Of a stretch of DNA of 50,795 bases, positions 3,203 through 33,373 are shown in pieces. The first letter of the stretch is position 1. The number at the start of each line of letters is the position of its first letter. Made by a program: the position numbers and the translations under genes. The notes beneath the pieces are model-generated. The model ran no database searches. It saw only the letters and a list, made by a program, of their open reading frames with translations, and was not told the DNA's origin. Source of the stretch: a virus; UHGV virus genome UHGV-0203461. One strand, written 5' to 3'.

Positions 3203-3589
3203 TTATTCTTCATCTTCTTGCAAACTTCTTAACCATTTTTCAAGCGCATCTATTTTATCAATACTTACCTCTTCTTTATCATGTAATTTTGATATTAACT
3301 GTGATAAAGGATTATTATGTAAACCTCCAAATAGTTTTTTAGTTTCTGATTTTAAGTATTCTTTTTCTTTTATTAATATTGTATAATGTGTGTGTTTACC
3401 TATTTTTTGAGAAGCTAAAAAACCTCTTTTAGTTAACCTTAATAAAAGTGTTAGTGTTGTAGTTTGTTTCCATTTATATATTTTTTCCATTTCATCTGCC
3501 ACATCTTTTGATATTACAGTTTTATAACCAGTATTCCATATGTATTTCATAATCTTGAACTCTGAATCTGGTAATTTTTTATTTAGCAT
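3203..3589 (-). CDS. BlaI/MecI/CopY-family winged-helix transcriptional repressor (orphan, no BlaR1 sensor)
   Basis: 128 aa. It aligns over its full length to the penicillinase-repressor pattern (SEFKIMKYIW...TTLTLLLRLTKRGFL...YTIL...). Confidence 0.65.
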   Translation of the reverse strand: MLNKKLPDSEFKIMKYIWNTGYKTVISKDVADEMEKIYKWKQTTTLTLLLRLTKRGFLASQKIGKHTHYTILIKEKEYLKSETKKLFGGLHNNPLSQLISKLHDKEEVSIDKIDALEKWLRSLQEDEE

Positions 3590-3628
3590 AATATCCCCTT
3601 CTTTCTATTAACATATAAAAATATAAAA

Positions 3629-3910
3629 TTATTTTTTTCCTAGTTTCTGCATACTTTCTATAAATACTTTTATTTGTTTCTCTGTCTTTTCTTCTTTTTT
3701 ATGTATAGTTGTAAATACTTGTGTAAAAAAATTATCATATTTACTTACATCTTTTTCTTCTTTTATTACATCTAAATATTCTTTTTTAGTTACTAATACT
3801 TCATAGTTTAATTGAAAACCAACTCTCTTCTTTTTTAATATTCTCATTTTTACTAATCTTCCAAGTAAAATCTCTGTAGTGCTTTTTCTCCACTTATACT
3901 TTTCTTTCAT
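3629..3910 (-). CDS. second BlaI-like paralog, N-terminally truncated or degenerate
   Basis: 93 aa. It is homologous to the C-terminal two-thirds of the neighbouring BlaI-like protein (YKWRKSTTEILLGRLVKMRILKKKRVGFQLNYEVLVTKKEYL against YKWKQTTTLTLLLRLTKRGFL...YTILIKEKEYL). The upstream in-frame extension has no start codon. Confidence 0.4.
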   Translation of the reverse strand: MKEKYKWRKSTTEILLGRLVKMRILKKKRVGFQLNYEVLVTKKEYLDVIKEEKDVSKYDNFFTQVFTTIHKKEEKTEKQIKVFIESMQKLGKK

Positions 3911-4439
3911 TGCTACTTCTATTTCTTTTTTAGATAGAGTAGACTTTTCCCTTCACATGTACTCCATCAACATTAATTCGCCCCTGCGTAATTTACTTTC
4001 TACCTCTTGTCGCTCCATTTATGTCACTTCCTTAATTCGTCTAACTTAAATTAATAATAGGAGCTTTTTAGAACAAAAACTATAGGTAATTTTTACCAAA
4101 TATTCTACTGTTTTAGTTTGTTTTCTTAGAAGAAAAATAACTTTCATATCTATAAAATTATTCAACTTTCAAACTATCCTGTTGAATAATAACTAATTCT
4201 ATTGTATTATTTTAGTTGTAGAATAAAACTAAATCGGCAAAACTAGAGAAATTTAGTGGCATAAATATATATGAACTAAGAATTGTAAAATGAGTTATAA
4301 GTTATATCATCCAGTTATCAAAAACATATACTCTTTTTGTTTTTGTGAAAGTTTTTTAGGTGGCTAATAATATATATACTTAGAGATAAAATAAAATATA
4401 TTTCTAATATTCATAGTTTTATTTTTTCTCAAAATGCGA

Positions 4440-4595
4440 TATAATAAAGATGTAAATTCGTATCAAAAACAAAAAAAGAAACTACAATCTATTAGCCTAG
4501 AGTGAAGTTTCATTAACTAAATATTAATGTCGTTTTTTATTAAACTTGATTTTTACATCAAGCTCAAAGTCACTCCTGCCAGAGTGGCTTTTTAC
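4440..4595 (+). ncRNA. putative antisense antitoxin sRNA of type I TA locus 1 (boundaries approximate)
   Basis: TATAAT -10 box at 4440-4445. The transcript would run antisense into the 3' half of the toxin ORF and stop at the hairpin CACTCCTGCCAGAGTG plus T-run at 4572-4595. The architecture is mirrored at locus 2. Confidence 0.35.
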
Positions 4596-4667
4596 TTTTC
4601 TGGAAATAATATATGTAATAAAGCTAGCTGTTAAACTAGCTAACACTCCTAGTAAAAATTCGCTCAT
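4524..4667 (-). CDS. type I toxin, small membrane peptide, 47 aa (MSEFLLGVLASLTASFITYIISRKVKSHSGRSDFELDVKIKFNKKRH)
   Basis: Absent from the ORF track because it is under 60 aa. RBS GGAAGGAGGTGG. Hydrophobic N-terminal helix with a charged C-tail. Upstream promoter TTGATA-N15-TGTTATAAT at 4758-4784 on the - strand. Paralogous to the peptide at 21445-21606. Confidence 0.6.
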   Translation of the reverse strand: MSEFLLGVLASLTASFITYIISRKVKSHSGRSDFELDVKIKFNKKRH

Positions 4668-4926
4668 TTCTCCACCTCCTTCCTTTTAAGGGATGGAATG
4701 TAGAAAATGAAGCTCCACTCTTAGATTGTAGTTCCACAAGATTATTCTTGCATTTTAATTATAACATAATTTTACAATTATCAAATATCTATTCTTCATA
4801 TTTTTTATTTATACAATATATTCTATATTGCAATAAAAAACATTGTTTTAAATATATATATACATAGGTATATACTAAATATGTTAAACTTAATTATAGA
4901 AAATATAAAATGAAAGGAATAAAAAT

Positions 4927-5115
4927 ATGACTAAGACTATATTATGTGATTACTGTAATAAAGGAATAAACAAAGATGATAATAAGTATATTACTTTTCA
5001 TAAGAAAAGTCATATGAAAACTAACATTTGTATTAATTGTGCATTAAATTTGATAGATAAAGATAAATTAAATGAAAATATTATAAATAATCAACATGGT
5101 TATTCAAAGAAATGA
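4927..5115 (+). CDS. small zinc-ribbon protein (CxxC...CxxC)
   Basis: 62 aa with two Cys pairs. Followed by a hairpin plus T-run near 5310-5340. Confidence 0.3.
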   Translation: MTKTILCDYCNKGINKDDNKYITFHKKSHMKTNICINCALNLIDKDKLNENIINNQHGYSKK

Positions 5116-5709
5116 AAAAGCACTCTCCATAATGAAGAATGCTCTATATAATAATGTTTGACTTAGTAAAGATGTGTTGGGGTTACATATTTACTTTTTT
5201 ATTATATCATATAACTTTGTGTATGAAAAAGAATTTAAATCGATTTTAAGGTGTGTTGAGTAATATTCTTGATAGTTTATATGTTGATGAATTTCAAAAA
5301 AATAAGCACTCTTATAAAAAGAGTACTTTTGGTATATATTCAAGCATTTATCTAATACAATTATAGCATGTCTTATGTTTTAGTCTGATAATTTTCGTTC
5401 GTTTTATTATTACAGCTATAGACATAAAAACAAAAAGTATAAAAACTATTGCTATAGCTTTTATACTTTAAAATTCATAAAATTTTACTACTTAATTTGT
5501 TCTAACAAATACTTATAGTCACTATAAGAAATATACTTATTTGAGAAAGCTTGTTCTTCTAAATATTCTTTTTTTTGTTTTCTTTCTTTAAAAAATACAA
5601 TTATTTTTTTTATCATAAAACACACCCCCTAATTTTGTAGCTATAAATACAATTTAAAATATATTTTTATATAATTATGAACTTAATAGATTAAAATTAT
5701 ACTCAAATA

Positions 5710-13173: not shown

Positions 13174-13593
13174 TTATACACTCACCACCTTCTCTGCTTT
13201 GATATTTCCATATTTGGTATGGACCATAAATTTACAATGGACCTTTCCTTTTACATTTTGAAACTCAAAATTATCTACAGTTTCAATCCTATCATCTTGA
13301 ATTAGTGCTTCTTTGATTCGCCTTTCAATTTCAGGTATTACAAAGGAAATAGGTTCTCCAATTAAGTCATTTAACTCAACTCCATAGTTCCAAGAATAAA
13401 TAAGGTGCTCATACCTTTCAGTATTTAAAATTAAAAAGATGGTTTGTTTTAATGCTTCTACATCATCACAAATACCATCTACTCTGTTTTTTTCTATATG
13501 AAGTTTAAATGTCTTACTTGGTTCTTGCCTTACATCAAAGTTAATTATTGATACATCTTCAATGTCATAGTCAATGTTATCTGTTGGTAACAC
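13174..13593 (-). CDS. XkdS-like baseplate protein (DUF2634-type)
   Basis: 139 aa. Synteny. Confidence 0.4.
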   Translation of the reverse strand: MLPTDNIDYDIEDVSIINFDVRQEPSKTFKLHIEKNRVDGICDDVEALKQTIFLILNTERYEHLIYSWNYGVELNDLIGEPISFVIPEIERRIKEALIQDDRIETVDNFEFQNVKGKVHCKFMVHTKYGNIKAEKVVSV

Positions 13594-20930: not shown

Positions 20931-21101
20931 TTATTTTTCTAAAAGTAAATGGATTCCCTGTCTTATAGCCTCTGCTTTTGTAAGGTTATTTTTTTTACAG
21001 TATTCATCTAATTTTTCATTAGTTTCATCATCTACTCTAACCTTAATATCATTAGTTTTAGGGCTTCCTACAACAGGTCTTCCTATTTTTTTAGGACTCA
21101 T
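20931..21101 (-). CDS. CopG/Arc-type ribbon-helix-helix protein, 56 aa (MSPKKIGRPVVGSPKTNDIKVRVDDETNEKLDEYCKKNNLTKAEAIRQGIHLLLEK)
   Basis: Absent from the ORF track because it is under 60 aa. RBS GAGGTG 6 nt upstream. Classic RHH beta-strand/helix pattern. Immediately upstream of the antirepressor. Confidence 0.55.
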   Translation of the reverse strand: MSPKKIGRPVVGSPKTNDIKVRVDDETNEKLDEYCKKNNLTKAEAIRQGIHLLLEK

Positions 21102-21112
21102 GTTATCACCTC

Positions 21113-21162
21113 ACTTTTGAGTTCCATAATTAAATTATATAGTTTTGGAACTCAAAAGTCAA
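21113..21162 (-). promoter_or_regulatory. consensus sigma-A promoter TTGACT-N17-TATAAT (- strand) overlapped by a 14-bp perfect inverted repeat ACTTTTGAGTTCCA-N19-TGGAACTCAAAAGT
   Basis: On the + strand, AGTCAA at 21157-21162 and ATTATA at 21134-21139 are spaced 17 bp apart. The palindrome arms are at 21113-21126 and 21146-21159, covering the -35 box and the transcription start. Confidence 0.5.
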
Positions 21163-21228
21163 TAACTTATTCCAATTTTTTCTAATTATTTTACTCAACC
21201 GACCATTTTGAGCAAATTTGAGCAAAAC

Positions 21229-21257
21229 AAAAGCACTTACATGTTGGTAAGTGCTTT
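21229..21257. terminator. hairpin AAAGCACTTAC-ATGTTG-GTAAGTGCTTT (11-bp perfect stem)
   Basis: Same motif family. Preceded by the direct repeat TTGAGCAAA x2. Confidence 0.45.
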
Positions 21258-21373
21258 CTTATTTACAATTAAATTTATTCATCTAGTTAGATTCATCATT
21301 ATTTTGTATAAAAAATTTCATCTTTTTATTGACTATAAAAAATATTATAGGCAATATTTTTTCTAATTTGTGG

Positions 21374-21525
21374 TATAATAAAAACAAGAAGAACTACAAT
21401 CTATTTAGCGGTAGAGTGAAGTTCATAATTTTAAAAAATATAAATTATTTAAATTTGCGGAACTTTATTTTAAAACCAAGTTCCCAGCCACTTTTACTCT
21501 TGCCACGAGTAGAGTGGCTTTTTAC
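21374..21525 (+). ncRNA. putative antisense antitoxin sRNA of type I TA locus 2 (boundaries approximate)
   Basis: Extended -10 box TGgTATAAT at 21371-21379. Conserved leader AACTACAATCTATTTAGCGGTAGAGTGAAGTT. Terminator hairpin plus T-run at 21487-21529 inside the toxin ORF. Confidence 0.35.
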
Positions 21526-21606
21526 GTTTTTGATACATCTACAAACGATATATCCAATTAAACTAGCTATCAAGCTAGCTAATATACTAAGTAAAAAATT
21601 GTCCAT
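21445..21606 (-). CDS. type I toxin, small membrane peptide, 53 aa (MDNFLLSILASLIASLIGYIVCRCIKNVKSHSTRGKSKSGWELGFKIKFRKFK)
   Basis: Absent from the ORF track. RBS GGAGGTGG. Paralog of the 47-aa peptide at 4524-4667 (shared xEFLL..LASL.AS.I.YI..R.VKSHS pattern). Extended -10 box TGTTATAAT on the - strand at 21696-21704. Confidence 0.6.
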   Translation of the reverse strand: MDNFLLSILASLIASLIGYIVCRCIKNVKSHSTRGKSKSGWELGFKIKFRKFK

Positions 21607-21926
21607 ACTTCCCACCTCCTTTCATTAGGAAGTAGGTTTTATCCCAGTATGAACTCCACTCTATAAATTGTAGATTACATCTTCTTGCTACAATTATTAT
21701 AACATATAATTCTTACATATTTTACCTATATTTTATCTTCTTCTACTTCTTCTAGCTTCTTTAGCAGTCTTTTTTTCTTCTTTTATTTCTTCTTCTACTT
21801 TAATATCTATAGAAGCAGCAACAAATGCCCTCTCGAAGTCTGGTAAATCTGTATATTCATGTGGTTTCCATTTGAATTTATGAAGGCAATAATGAGCTAC
21901 ACTAGCATCATAATCGCCTCCTTCAA

Positions 21927-22367
21927 TTAGTTTTTTGCTTCTTCTACTTTATCCTCAAAAGTCCTATCAAAACCATTCACCTCTCCTACCTCACTTGAAA
22001 GGTCTGTATATTCACCAGGAGTTAACATTGTTGTTAATAGCTCCTCTGCCCCCATTACACCATAACTATTTTGAAGTTCTGCATCATGTAAATCTGGAAA
22101 TACTACAGTTTCTACACACAGTTTCAAAGTATAAGTATTAAAATCTGTTTCACTAGTGTATTGCCCTGTTGCTTTCCCTTTTTTATTTAGTACAGGTACT
22201 CTTATAGTTGAATCTTTTCTTAATTGTCTATCTCTATCTGAATCTATTGCTTTAAGTTCCCATTCGATTGCTTTTCCATCTTCTCCTATAAACCTTTCAC
22301 TTGCCACATACTTTCTATTCTCTACTTTTATTGCATTTTGACTTAAAAAAGCGTTTAAATCTCCCAT
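21927..22367 (-). CDS. tail assembly chaperone, downstream member of an XkdN-like pair
   Basis: 146 aa, between the tube and tape measure genes. Confidence 0.4.
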   Translation of the reverse strand: MGDLNAFLSQNAIKVENRKYVASERFIGEDGKAIEWELKAIDSDRDRQLRKDSTIRVPVLNKKGKATGQYTSETDFNTYTLKLCVETVVFPDLHDAELQNSYGVMGAEELLTTMLTPGEYTDLSSEVGEVNGFDRTFEDKVEEAKN

Positions 22368-22371
22368 ATTC

Positions 22372-22629
22372 TTATTCTACCTCCATCACCAAATATTTTG
22401 TTTGTTTTTCTATTGTTGCAACACCAGCTTCATTTATTTCAAATTTTATGATTATTGGCTTTAATGACGAACCATCAATTGTATCTGTTGCTAACTTATC
22501 TGAAATATCTATAAGATATTTTCCTGCCTTTTTATACATCTCGCTGACACGTTCTTCCAAAGGTCTTTTATTGCTATAATCAAAAGAAATTGAATCTTTT
22601 ATCTCATATTTATCCTTAATTTTAATCAT
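22372..22629 (-). CDS. tail assembly chaperone, upstream member of an XkdN-like pair
   Basis: 85 aa, immediately after the tube gene. Confidence 0.4.
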   Translation of the reverse strand: MIKIKDKYEIKDSISFDYSNKRPLEERVSEMYKKAGKYLIDISDKLATDTIDGSSLKPIIIKFEINEAGVATIEKQTKYLVMEVE

Positions 22630-32712: not shown

Positions 32713-33373
32713 AATCTACACTTATTTTCAACTCATCATCTCCAATATCATCTTTACTTAGGTTATCAACTTCACATTTTAACTTCTCAACTCTAGTTTT
32801 TTGCTCCTCTGTAGCCAAATTCCAATCCTTATGAATCATTTCATCATACTGTTTAATTAAACTTCTAAGTTCACTCATAGCTCTACTCTGTGCATTAAGA
32901 AAAGATGCTTGCCTATCCCATGCAAATTGAAATTCATACTCTATCTTCTCACCATTTTCTGTGCTTTCATGTTTCTTTAATTCCTTAATCATTTCTTCTT
33001 TGTCTTTAACATACATTATCTTCTGTGCTCTTATTATTGCTGCATATTGAATTGTTATCTGTTCCCAAAGAATATCAAATTTATCTTTTATAGATATTTC
33101 TTGTATCAATTCCCTAGTTTCTTCAGGTAGATATTTTGAGAAGAAACCAAACTTTTCAGCATTCTTATTACCAGGTGGACCAGTAGCATTTTTATTACCT
33201 ATGGGTGCACCCCTTTTATTTTTAGGTGCACCCTTCTTTTTTTCACTAGCCCAGTTGTATCTTTTAATCCATGACTTTAAAGTGTTTAAACTAATGTCAT
33301 ACTTTGCTGATATTTCCTTTTGTTTCATACCTTTTAGGTAATCTTGTTTTACCTTTTCTTTGACATCTTGCAC
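32690..33373 (-). CDS. terminase small subunit
   Basis: 227 aa. N-terminal HTH, basic Gly-rich linker ([28 protein letters not shown]). Confidence 0.7.

Follow-up and report, generated by a model that had tools for sequence, protein, structure and literature searches.

The DNA analysed here, the 50,795 nucleotides of UHGV virus genome UHGV-0203461 (the window, meaning this whole stretch), is a phiCD119-like Clostridioides difficile prophage carrying two type I toxin–antitoxin (TA) loci, one CD0977.1/RCd11-like and one CD0956.2/RCd10-like; over positions 3500-5400 it is 92-99% identical to phages CDMH1, phiCD119, phiMMP02 and phiC2. The TA family concerned has been described previously (Maikova 2018, PMC5961336; Peltier 2020, PMC7699646). 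An earlier, sequence-only reading of the window had noticed that the toxin mRNA and the antitoxin RNA of each locus begin with the same leader motif, and had proposed a common structured 5' element acting in processing, stability or binding. Our analysis suggests that the shared leader is probably an inverted repeat that closes the toxin mRNA by pairing of its 5' and 3' ends. The genes and RNAs on which this argument rests are as follows.

~4440-4765: locus 1, a CD0977.1-like toxin with an RCd11-like antisense RNA
4524..4667, - strand: toxin gene of locus 1, CD0977.1-like, 47 aa (MSEFLLGVLASLTASFITYIISRKVKSHSGRSDFELDVKIKFNKKRH); from the open reading frame (ORF) list, tblastn and an upstream GGAGG
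4473..4754, - strand: predicted CD0977.1-like toxin mRNA, ~279-282 nt, transferred from strain 630 rapid amplification of cDNA ends (RACE; 282 nt), with its start near 4751-4754
4452..4600, + strand: RCd11-like antitoxin RNA, short form of ~149 nt, matching RCd11 in Peltier 2020 Supplementary Fig. 9
~21370-21705: locus 2, a CD0956.2-like toxin with an RCd10-like antisense RNA
21445..21606, - strand: toxin gene of locus 2, CD0956.2-like, 53 aa (MDNFLLSILASLIASLIGYIVCRCIKNVKSHSTRGKSKSGWELGFKIKFRKFK); tblastn match 21606-21448, then a stop codon
21386..21531, + strand: RCd10-like antitoxin RNA, short form, with its start placed by analogy with RCd10, which begins AAGAAGAACTAC

Both toxin ORFs (47 and 53 aa) are preceded by the Shine-Dalgarno sequence GGAGG, and the family alignment gives 48-66% identity. 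They have the features of toxins of this family, namely a length of ~35-55 aa, a hydrophobic N-terminal helix, a lysine-rich tail and a strong Shine-Dalgarno sequence, and each faces a convergent antisense gene that has its own -10 box and terminator-like site and runs across the 3' portion of the toxin mRNA. In the RCd11-like RNA this terminator-like site is at 4566-4591 and in the RCd10-like RNA at 21502-21518, with a T run after it in both cases. Toxin family, convergent layout and prophage location are shared with the published pairs CD0956.2/RCd10 (CD2907.1/RCd9) and CD0977.1/RCd11 (CD2889/RCd12); the window antitoxins are near-identical to the printed RCd11 and RCd10 sequences and the transcripts agree in length (282 and 298 nt). 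Both window loci belong to the published C. difficile TA family, in which growth arrest by the toxin and its neutralisation by the antitoxin RNA have been demonstrated experimentally for the strain 630 homologues only.

The inverted repeat and the transcript ends

The motif does occur once on each strand at both loci, with coordinates that differ by 0-6 nt from those first given. Its four copies, the four -10 boxes and the two arms of the longer repeat at locus 2 are listed below.

4480-4513, + strand: antitoxin-side copy of locus 1, AACTACAATCTATTAGCCTAGAGTGAAGTTTCAT
Reverse complement of 4707-4733, - strand: toxin-side copy of locus 1, AACTACAATCTAAGAGTGGAGCTTCAT
21392-21425, + strand: antitoxin-side copy of locus 2, AACTACAATCTATTTAGCGGTAGAGTGAAGTTCAT
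Reverse complement of 21649-21677, - strand: toxin-side copy of locus 2, TAATCTACAATTTATAGAGTGGAGTTCAT, with a degenerate first half
4440..4445, + strand: -10 box TATAAT of the RCd11-like antitoxin promoter (P2 equivalent)
4763-4758, - strand: -10 box TATAAT of the toxin promoter of locus 1
21374..21379, + strand: extended -10 box TGTGGTATAAT of the RCd10-like antitoxin promoter, conserved across ~50 loci
21701-21696, - strand: -10 box of the toxin promoter of locus 2
21384..21425, + strand: antitoxin-side arm of locus 2, ACAAGAAGA + CTACAATCTA + loop TTTAGCGG + TAGAGTGAAGTTCAT
21649..21689, - strand: toxin-side arm of locus 2, AGCAAGAAGA TGTAAT CTACAATTTA T AGAGTGGAGTTCAT, starting at the predicted start site

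The -10 boxes of the window were read from the sequence; across loci they were called by exact TATAAT, since allowing one mismatch picks up the TACAAT of the motif itself. The motif had been placed 12-35 nt past a -10 box, and its measured starts lie 34 nt (4440-4445), 24 nt (4763-4758), 12 nt (21374-21379) and ~18-22 nt (21701-21696) downstream. Published RACE and start-site mapping in strain 630 puts the transcription starts upstream of the motif, so that both convergent transcripts do carry it near their 5' ends. RCd11 begins GTAAATTCG (Peltier 2020, PMC7699646), and its start corresponds to window position 4452, 7 nt past the -10 box and 28 nt before the motif; RCd10 has the motif from ~+7, and the toxin mRNAs of strain 630 start ~17-21 nt (CD0977.1) and ~12-16 nt (CD0956.2) before it. 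With mapped starts upstream of the motif and the motif kept at homologous loci (see below), neither of the findings that the sequence-only reading had named as fatal to a shared leader, starts downstream of the motif or its absence elsewhere, was made.

A start at 21689 gives the locus 2 toxin mRNA a 5' untranslated region (UTR) of 83 nt, the same as the published length for CD0956.2. The CD0956.2 mRNA of strain 630 is 298 nt long and its 3' end has the coordinate of the RCd10 start site, while the 282-nt CD0977.1 mRNA ends 21 nt inside RCd11, which maps to ~4473 in the window. Long RCd10 transcripts are rare and extend to the toxin start site or close to it. The majority of antitoxin transcripts terminate before the toxin-side copy, at a separate terminator of canonical form.

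Alignment of many loci indicated that the repeat is longer than had been seen in the window alone and that in most loci it begins at the start sites, the unit there being GCAAGAAGA..CTACAATYTA..AGAGTGRAGTTCAT, ~40 nt. The consensus is TATAAT-N6-A GCAAGAAGA TGTAAT CTACAATTTA T AGAGTGGAG TTCAT on the toxin side and TGTGGTATAAT AAAA GCAAGAAGA A CTACAATCTA TTTNNNNG TAGAGTGRAG TTCAT on the antitoxin side. The antitoxin copy forms an interrupted 12-bp hairpin of ~-10 kcal/mol with a variable loop of 6-8 nt (at locus 1, a stem at 4478-4511 with loop UUAGCC in the RNA fold), whereas in the toxin copy both arms are joined by only 0-1 nt and the local fold is weak, ~-4.7 kcal/mol. Because the loop is present on the antitoxin copy only and the folds are unequal, the copies do not constitute one shared structured module, and the earlier suggestion of a single such 5' element was not borne out. 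At both loci the toxin mRNA has its 3'-terminal hairpin from the - strand complement of the antitoxin-side copy, and this complement is also the 3' arm of the closing helix described below. On the toxin strand this copy reads as an A+U-rich stem with two internal mismatches followed by a U-rich tract (at locus 1, the T run at 4465-4479 on the - strand); a scan with a terminator consensus made no call there, and the published toxin 3' ends map to it.

Several smaller features of the motif were also recorded. Peltier Supplementary Table 1 gives for CD0977.1 a start-site-mapping 5' end at 1142158; the RACE start is 21 nt upstream, at 1142137. Transferred to the window, the 1142158 end is position 4733 (- strand), the first toxin-side motif base and at most 2 nt from the base of the predicted closing helix. 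A typographical error, a processed end, or exonuclease trimming stopped by the helix could each account for it. The -10-like hexamer TACAAT within the motif lies at 4726-4731 (-), 4482-4487 (+), 21394-21399 (+) and 21667-21672 (-), and is a perfect TATAAT in loci L087, L063, L128 and L136; a promoter at this hexamer fits none of the mapped start sites. A third AGAGTGG is found on the antitoxin strand at 4582-4590 and 21510-21518, in the 3' arm of the antitoxin terminator (..AGAGTGGCTTTTT), and reads on the toxin strand as AAAAGCCACTCT, which encodes the conserved toxin residues K-S-H-S. The AGAGUGG of the leader (locus 1, - strand 4707-4721) has two alternative partners, the internal CCACUCU and the mRNA 3' end.

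Predicted closing helix and its recurrence

The toxin mRNA spans the region from its own start to approximately that of the antitoxin, and it therefore opens, at its 5' end, with the motif and finishes, at its 3' end, with the complement of the antitoxin-side copy. When the two window toxin mRNAs are folded, these segments join in a closing helix of 25-36 bp in the minimum-energy structure. The whole-mRNA folds of loci 1 and 2 have energies of -89.6 and -100.6 kcal/mol (z-scores -7.2 and -10.4), and the pair probability of the closing helix is 0.99 at locus 1 and 0.92 at locus 2, where the toxin-side arm pairs with 21386-21425. Among 61 unique phage loci, the end-to-end duplex has a mean energy of -39 kcal/mol, and the local hairpins competing with it have -4.7 and -8.7 kcal/mol, together -13. 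The helix has a pair probability of 0.66-0.99 across 16 representative loci, in 15 of which forbidding long-range pairs costs 8-23 kcal/mol; the cost in the remaining one, L138, is 1.9 kcal/mol. The duplex is slightly stronger on the toxin strand than on the antitoxin strand (-39.0 vs -36.8 kcal/mol, over loci that are not independent of one another). Published data on strain 630 bear on the same transcript: the toxin mRNA has a half-life of 89 min and the antitoxin one of 8 min, RCd11 binds in vitro no more than a fraction of the CD0977.1 mRNA, which the authors call "tightly folded", and Northern blots show a single major toxin species of ~300 nt with no truncated form.

Within the window alone the statistics of the motif are modest: a 12-mer allowed at most one mismatch gave 3 matches against 0.76 expected, and 4 of 100 shuffles reached 3. 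Its recurrence at homologous loci rules out chance. An exact-pattern scan of IMG/VR returned 118 stretches with 103 convergent pairs 220-260 bp apart, associated with ~35 different toxins, and the pair was present in every complete toxin homologue recovered (~64 distinct loci, including plasmids and Paraclostridium), among them all those retrieved by searches based on protein similarity, in which the motif was not used as a query. The expectation that the motif would be found at homologous loci was thus confirmed. A scan of the genome collection yielded C. difficile-complex genomes only, and sequence diversity came from plasmids. In the divergent classes (C. difficile plasmids, other Clostridioides and Paraclostridium bifermentans) the motif differs, with both copies changed together: the P. 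bifermentans pair is GGAATTGAAATCTA-T-AGAGTGGTGTTCCA vs GGAATTGAAGTCTA-TTCGCAGT-AGAGTGATATTCCA, and another class with joint change has "GCAAGGAA...GAGTGGTGTTTCCA". Pairing the ends of a locus with each other yields -35 to -45 kcal/mol, whereas ends taken from different divergent classes yield -15 to -27.

This co-variation was quantified in a trimmed alignment (A4) of 35 sequences with a 36-pair helix. Of the helix cells, 90.1% are paired, compared with 40-48% when the partners are slid; 18 pairs have changed on both sides, and compensatory cells number 66, where shuffles average 22 and none of 500 gets as high. Nucleotide diversity across 50 main-class loci is 0.00-0.11 in the arms, 0.28 in the coding sequence, 0.23 in the rest of the 5' UTR and 0.36 in the hairpin loop.

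The searches also brought up atypical loci and isolated copies. Two viral contigs, L047 (1710-1973) and L110 (2820-3085), encode 35-aa toxins MVI[DN]FLLSILAGVISAFMYEKIKNHSKANKSGLKK, probably CD0904.1/CD0956.3-like, within an inverted repeat of different sequence (GCAAGGAAA...AAGAGTGGTTATTTCCA vs ...AAGAGTAGCTATTTCCA); both differences between the copies are G.U on the toxin strand. In L002, L026, L035 and L077 (e.g. L026 796-1089) the full pair surrounds a toxin ORF starting with GTG, not ATG (VDNFLQGVLASLV...), and these toxins may be attenuated. Solitary RCd11-type antitoxin-side copies occur in the C. difficile phage contigs L060 (13562-13588) and L074 (3070-3096), and neither a partner copy nor a toxin was detected near them; deleted loci may have left them behind. 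Single motifs in viral contigs not from C. difficile, lacking both toxin and partner copy, were dismissed as chance matches.

Explanations of the shared leader

We think it likely that each locus is bounded by an inverted repeat beginning at or near both convergent start sites, and that the ends of the toxin mRNA pair to form a long closing helix, or panhandle. Since the antitoxin is antisense to the toxin 3' end, and this in turn pairs with the toxin 5' end, the two 5' ends must be alike; end-pairing together with antisense overlap is by itself sufficient to account for the shared motif. The self-complementary DNA of the antitoxin side would then encode both the interrupted 3' hairpin of the toxin and the 5' stem-loop of the antitoxin. 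Should this helix exist in vivo, it would bury the two ends of the toxin mRNA and shield them from RNase J and 3' exonucleases, leaving a message that is long-lived, compact and only partly accessible to the antitoxin, and full antitoxin pairing would be expected to open the panhandle and expose it to RNase III and other RNases. Such a helix, if real, would explain the 89-min half-life, the coincidence of the toxin 3' end with the antitoxin start and the partial binding of antitoxin in vitro. Its two arms can be broken and restored independently, which makes it a precise target for mutagenesis.

A number of observations weigh against this interpretation or restrict it. The closing helix is a prediction and not an observation. 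The predicted folds give the Shine-Dalgarno sequence a nearby anti-Shine-Dalgarno stretch of the 5' UTR as its partner, and not the 3' end, and the published overexpression constructs keep the entire toxin-side motif together with the region downstream of the gene and remain toxic; with the Shine-Dalgarno sequence masked by a local hairpin and the constructs still toxic, the helix is not a translational lock of the hok type. The minimum-energy fold of locus 1 pairs the right-arm AGAGUGG with the internal coding CCACUCU. Since the motif itself supplied the search pattern for most of the loci, the apparent conservation of the arms is inflated. Co-variation of the copies is likewise expected from gene conversion between DNA repeats. 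Since a G.U pair on the toxin strand is A.C on the opposite strand, the two can be compared in order to part constraint on the RNA from constraint on the DNA, and this comparison gave 83 vs 30 cells but only 14 vs 8 column pairs (p=0.14), a trend. Finally, locus L138 (300-587 of the C. difficile plasmid pB12_1, NZ_CP132142.1) is a chimera of two classes, with a toxin-side end of the GCAAGGAA...TTTCCA class and an antitoxin-side end of the GCAAGAGAA...AGAGTAGAG class; the complementarity of its ends is poor (-25 kcal/mol, a gain of 1.9 over the fold without long-range pairs). The locus has the look of a recombinant of these two classes, and its mixed ends indicate that recombination at the flanks happens and that strong end-pairing is not universal.

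Several of these points would be equally at home in an explanation at the level of DNA, in which promoter plus leader has been duplicated in inverted orientation, has no role in RNA, and is either homogenised by gene conversion or used as homology arms in the exchange of toxin cassettes between phages and plasmids. The repeat begins at the start sites, the promoters are alike (TATAAT then GCAAGAAGA) and near-identical flanks surround very different toxins; L138 attests recombination between classes, co-variation cannot tell a DNA repeat from RNA pairing, and the surplus of G.U pairs over A.C falls short of significance. We nevertheless regard this as unlikely, given that the repeat lies inside the promoters and not at the outer edge of the unit, that the arms stand far above promoter spacers, UTRs and coding sequence in conservation while the loop is free to vary, which is the pattern of a paired RNA, that the wobble trend (83 vs 30 cells) is on the toxin strand, and that an RNA structure agrees with the compact folding and very high stability published for the toxin mRNA. 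A miniature transposable element was rejected on similar grounds, both promoters lying outside the repeats, which are therefore not at the outer ends.

The proposal closest to the original suggestion is that a single 5' module on both RNAs is read by a common trans factor (an RNase, Hfq, or another protein or RNA) for processing, stability or binding. The motif is indeed in the 5' region of both transcripts, its arms are near-invariant in ~50 phage loci and more conserved than the coding sequence, depletion of Hfq, RNase Y, RNase J or RNase III alters the half-lives of these RNAs, and the mapped 5' end at 1142158 falls on the first toxin-side motif base. However, the two copies differ in structure (loops of 6-8 vs 0-1 nt, ~-10 vs -4.7 kcal/mol), RCd10 carries the motif yet has no action on CD0977.1, and the sequence varies among classes and genera while the copies co-vary within each locus; joint change within a locus and difference between classes fit pairing of the copies better than a fixed trans factor. 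A common site of this kind therefore finds little place in the data, and we hold it to be decidedly unlikely. The repeat might otherwise act as face-to-face hairpin terminators for the opposing transcripts, or its TACAAT/TATAAT hexamer might cause sigma-dependent promoter-proximal pausing or be a second promoter. The location of the antitoxin-side copy where the toxin mRNA ends, the rare long antitoxin transcripts that stop at or near the toxin start, and the hexamer itself, with its perfect form in L087, L063, L128 and L136, are in keeping with such roles. The toxin-side copy, read in the antitoxin direction, lacks a loop or T run and would be a poor terminator, though, most antitoxin transcripts stop at their separate canonical terminator, the mapped start sites fit no promoter at TACAAT, and co-variation of the copies is left unexplained, so that we judge this account very improbable.

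Returning to closure of the toxin mRNA by end-pairing, it is conceivable that the antitoxin 5' domain and the toxin leader compete for the same 3' sequence. We tentatively suggest, as a possibility that we rate well below even chance, that the toxin leader mimics the antitoxin 5' domain: by filling the antitoxin target it would keep the mRNA as a nuclease- and antitoxin-resistant panhandle, until the antitoxin enters via the variable loop or the downstream hairpins, displaces the leader and commits the mRNA to decay. If true, this would be a regulatory logic distinct from those of hok and aapA1, for type I systems with 3' overlap. The variable loop, for its part, might plausibly act as a specificity determinant through loop-loop contact with the terminator hairpin of the toxin. 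It often begins UUUA, UUUG or UUAG. YUNR is the rule for a U-turn, and these loop starts fit it. Specificity based on the loop would also fit the failure of RCd10 to cross-protect.

Comparison with known type I systems

The nearest parallel is hok/Sok of plasmid R1, in which the fold-back inhibition (fbi) element pairs the 3' end of hok mRNA with its 5' end. As in hok, the C. difficile loci combine a stable, compact toxin mRNA with predicted 5'/3' end-pairing and an unstable antisense RNA, in a module that maintains a mobile element. In hok the end-pairing locks translation and blocks binding of Sok, which targets the 5' region, and 3' trimming releases the lock. The C. difficile loci differ in that the Shine-Dalgarno sequence is masked locally, no processed active species has been reported and the antitoxin overlaps the 3' arm of the helix. 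In aapA1/IsoA1 of Helicobacter pylori, the full-length toxin mRNA is likewise folded through its ends (Arnion 2017, PMC5416894); AapA1 depends on 3' processing for its Shine-Dalgarno sequence to be unmasked, and the 5' UTR is the region to which IsoA1 is complementary (PMC5416894). Targeting of the 5' UTR does not apply to the C. difficile loci, and 3' activation probably does not either. A 5'-3' long-distance interaction is recognised as recurring in type I toxin mRNAs and is an annotation descriptor in T1TAdb (PMC8594479). Set against these hok- and aapA1-type traits, the C. difficile mRNAs have complementary extreme ends that would be paired in the favoured fold, and compensatory change across homologues, a pattern that concerted evolution of a DNA repeat also gives. 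They depart from the type in that, in the predicted folds, end-pairing occludes neither the ribosome-binding site nor a translational activator, and in that the overlap with the antitoxin is in the 3' part of the mRNA, 3' arm of the helix included, and not in its 5' region.

The overall layout is that of Gram-positive systems such as par (fst RNA I/RNA II) of Enterococcus faecalis pAD1 and txpA/RatA and bsrG/SR4 of Bacillus subtilis, which are convergent with a 3' overlap or shared terminator, and in which 5' structures stabilise the toxin mRNA. In par, repeats at the 5' ends are read in opposite directions, making the two RNAs complementary there. In the C. difficile RNAs, unlike those of par, both 5' ends read in the same sense, and the sequence to which they are complementary is the 3' end of the toxin mRNA itself.

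The earlier C. difficile studies note conserved promoters, terminator inverted repeats and Shine-Dalgarno sequestration (PMC5961336, PMC7699646). Those C. difficile TA texts that could be searched carry no comment on the shared leader, in keeping with the claim that it had not been pointed out, and no mention of 5'-3' pairing; Peltier Supplementary Fig. 10, an Mfold structure of the CD0977.1 mRNA that stands outside the searched text, may already display the helix. The advance is in any case a modest one. End-pairing is a known and accepted feature of type I toxin mRNAs that had not been spelled out for the C. difficile family, and it reveals no new principle. C. difficile prophages and plasmids owe stability to these modules, one of which serves as a counter-selection marker. 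The convergent inverted repeat running from both start sites, only one side of which has a loop, also provides a search signature for the family.

In strain 630 the corresponding loci have as neighbours a cyclic di-GMP (c-di-GMP) riboswitch by RCd11 and a CRISPR array by RCd10, and the window loci have neither. Unlike in phiCD630-1, no c-di-GMP-I riboswitch was found upstream of the RCd11-like gene (4200-4440) and no CRISPR array beside the RCd10-like locus (21000-22500). Rfam gave zero matches at the gathering threshold in the whole window, and at E<=1 only a chance microRNA match in positions 3800-5000, from which it follows that no described RNA family, and no c-di-GMP riboswitch, is present here. 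A tblastn search with all toxin classes revealed no third TA locus in the window; the weak matches at 13258-13374 and 32924-33040, inside large phage genes, were rejected as extra toxins and attributed to chance. Just upstream of the RCd10-like promoter, at 21230-21257, is a perfect 11-bp inverted repeat (AAAGCACTTAC/GTAAGTGCTTT) with a 6-nt loop followed by the T-rich CTTATTT. The same element occupies the same position in L125, and it is probably the terminator of the preceding gene.

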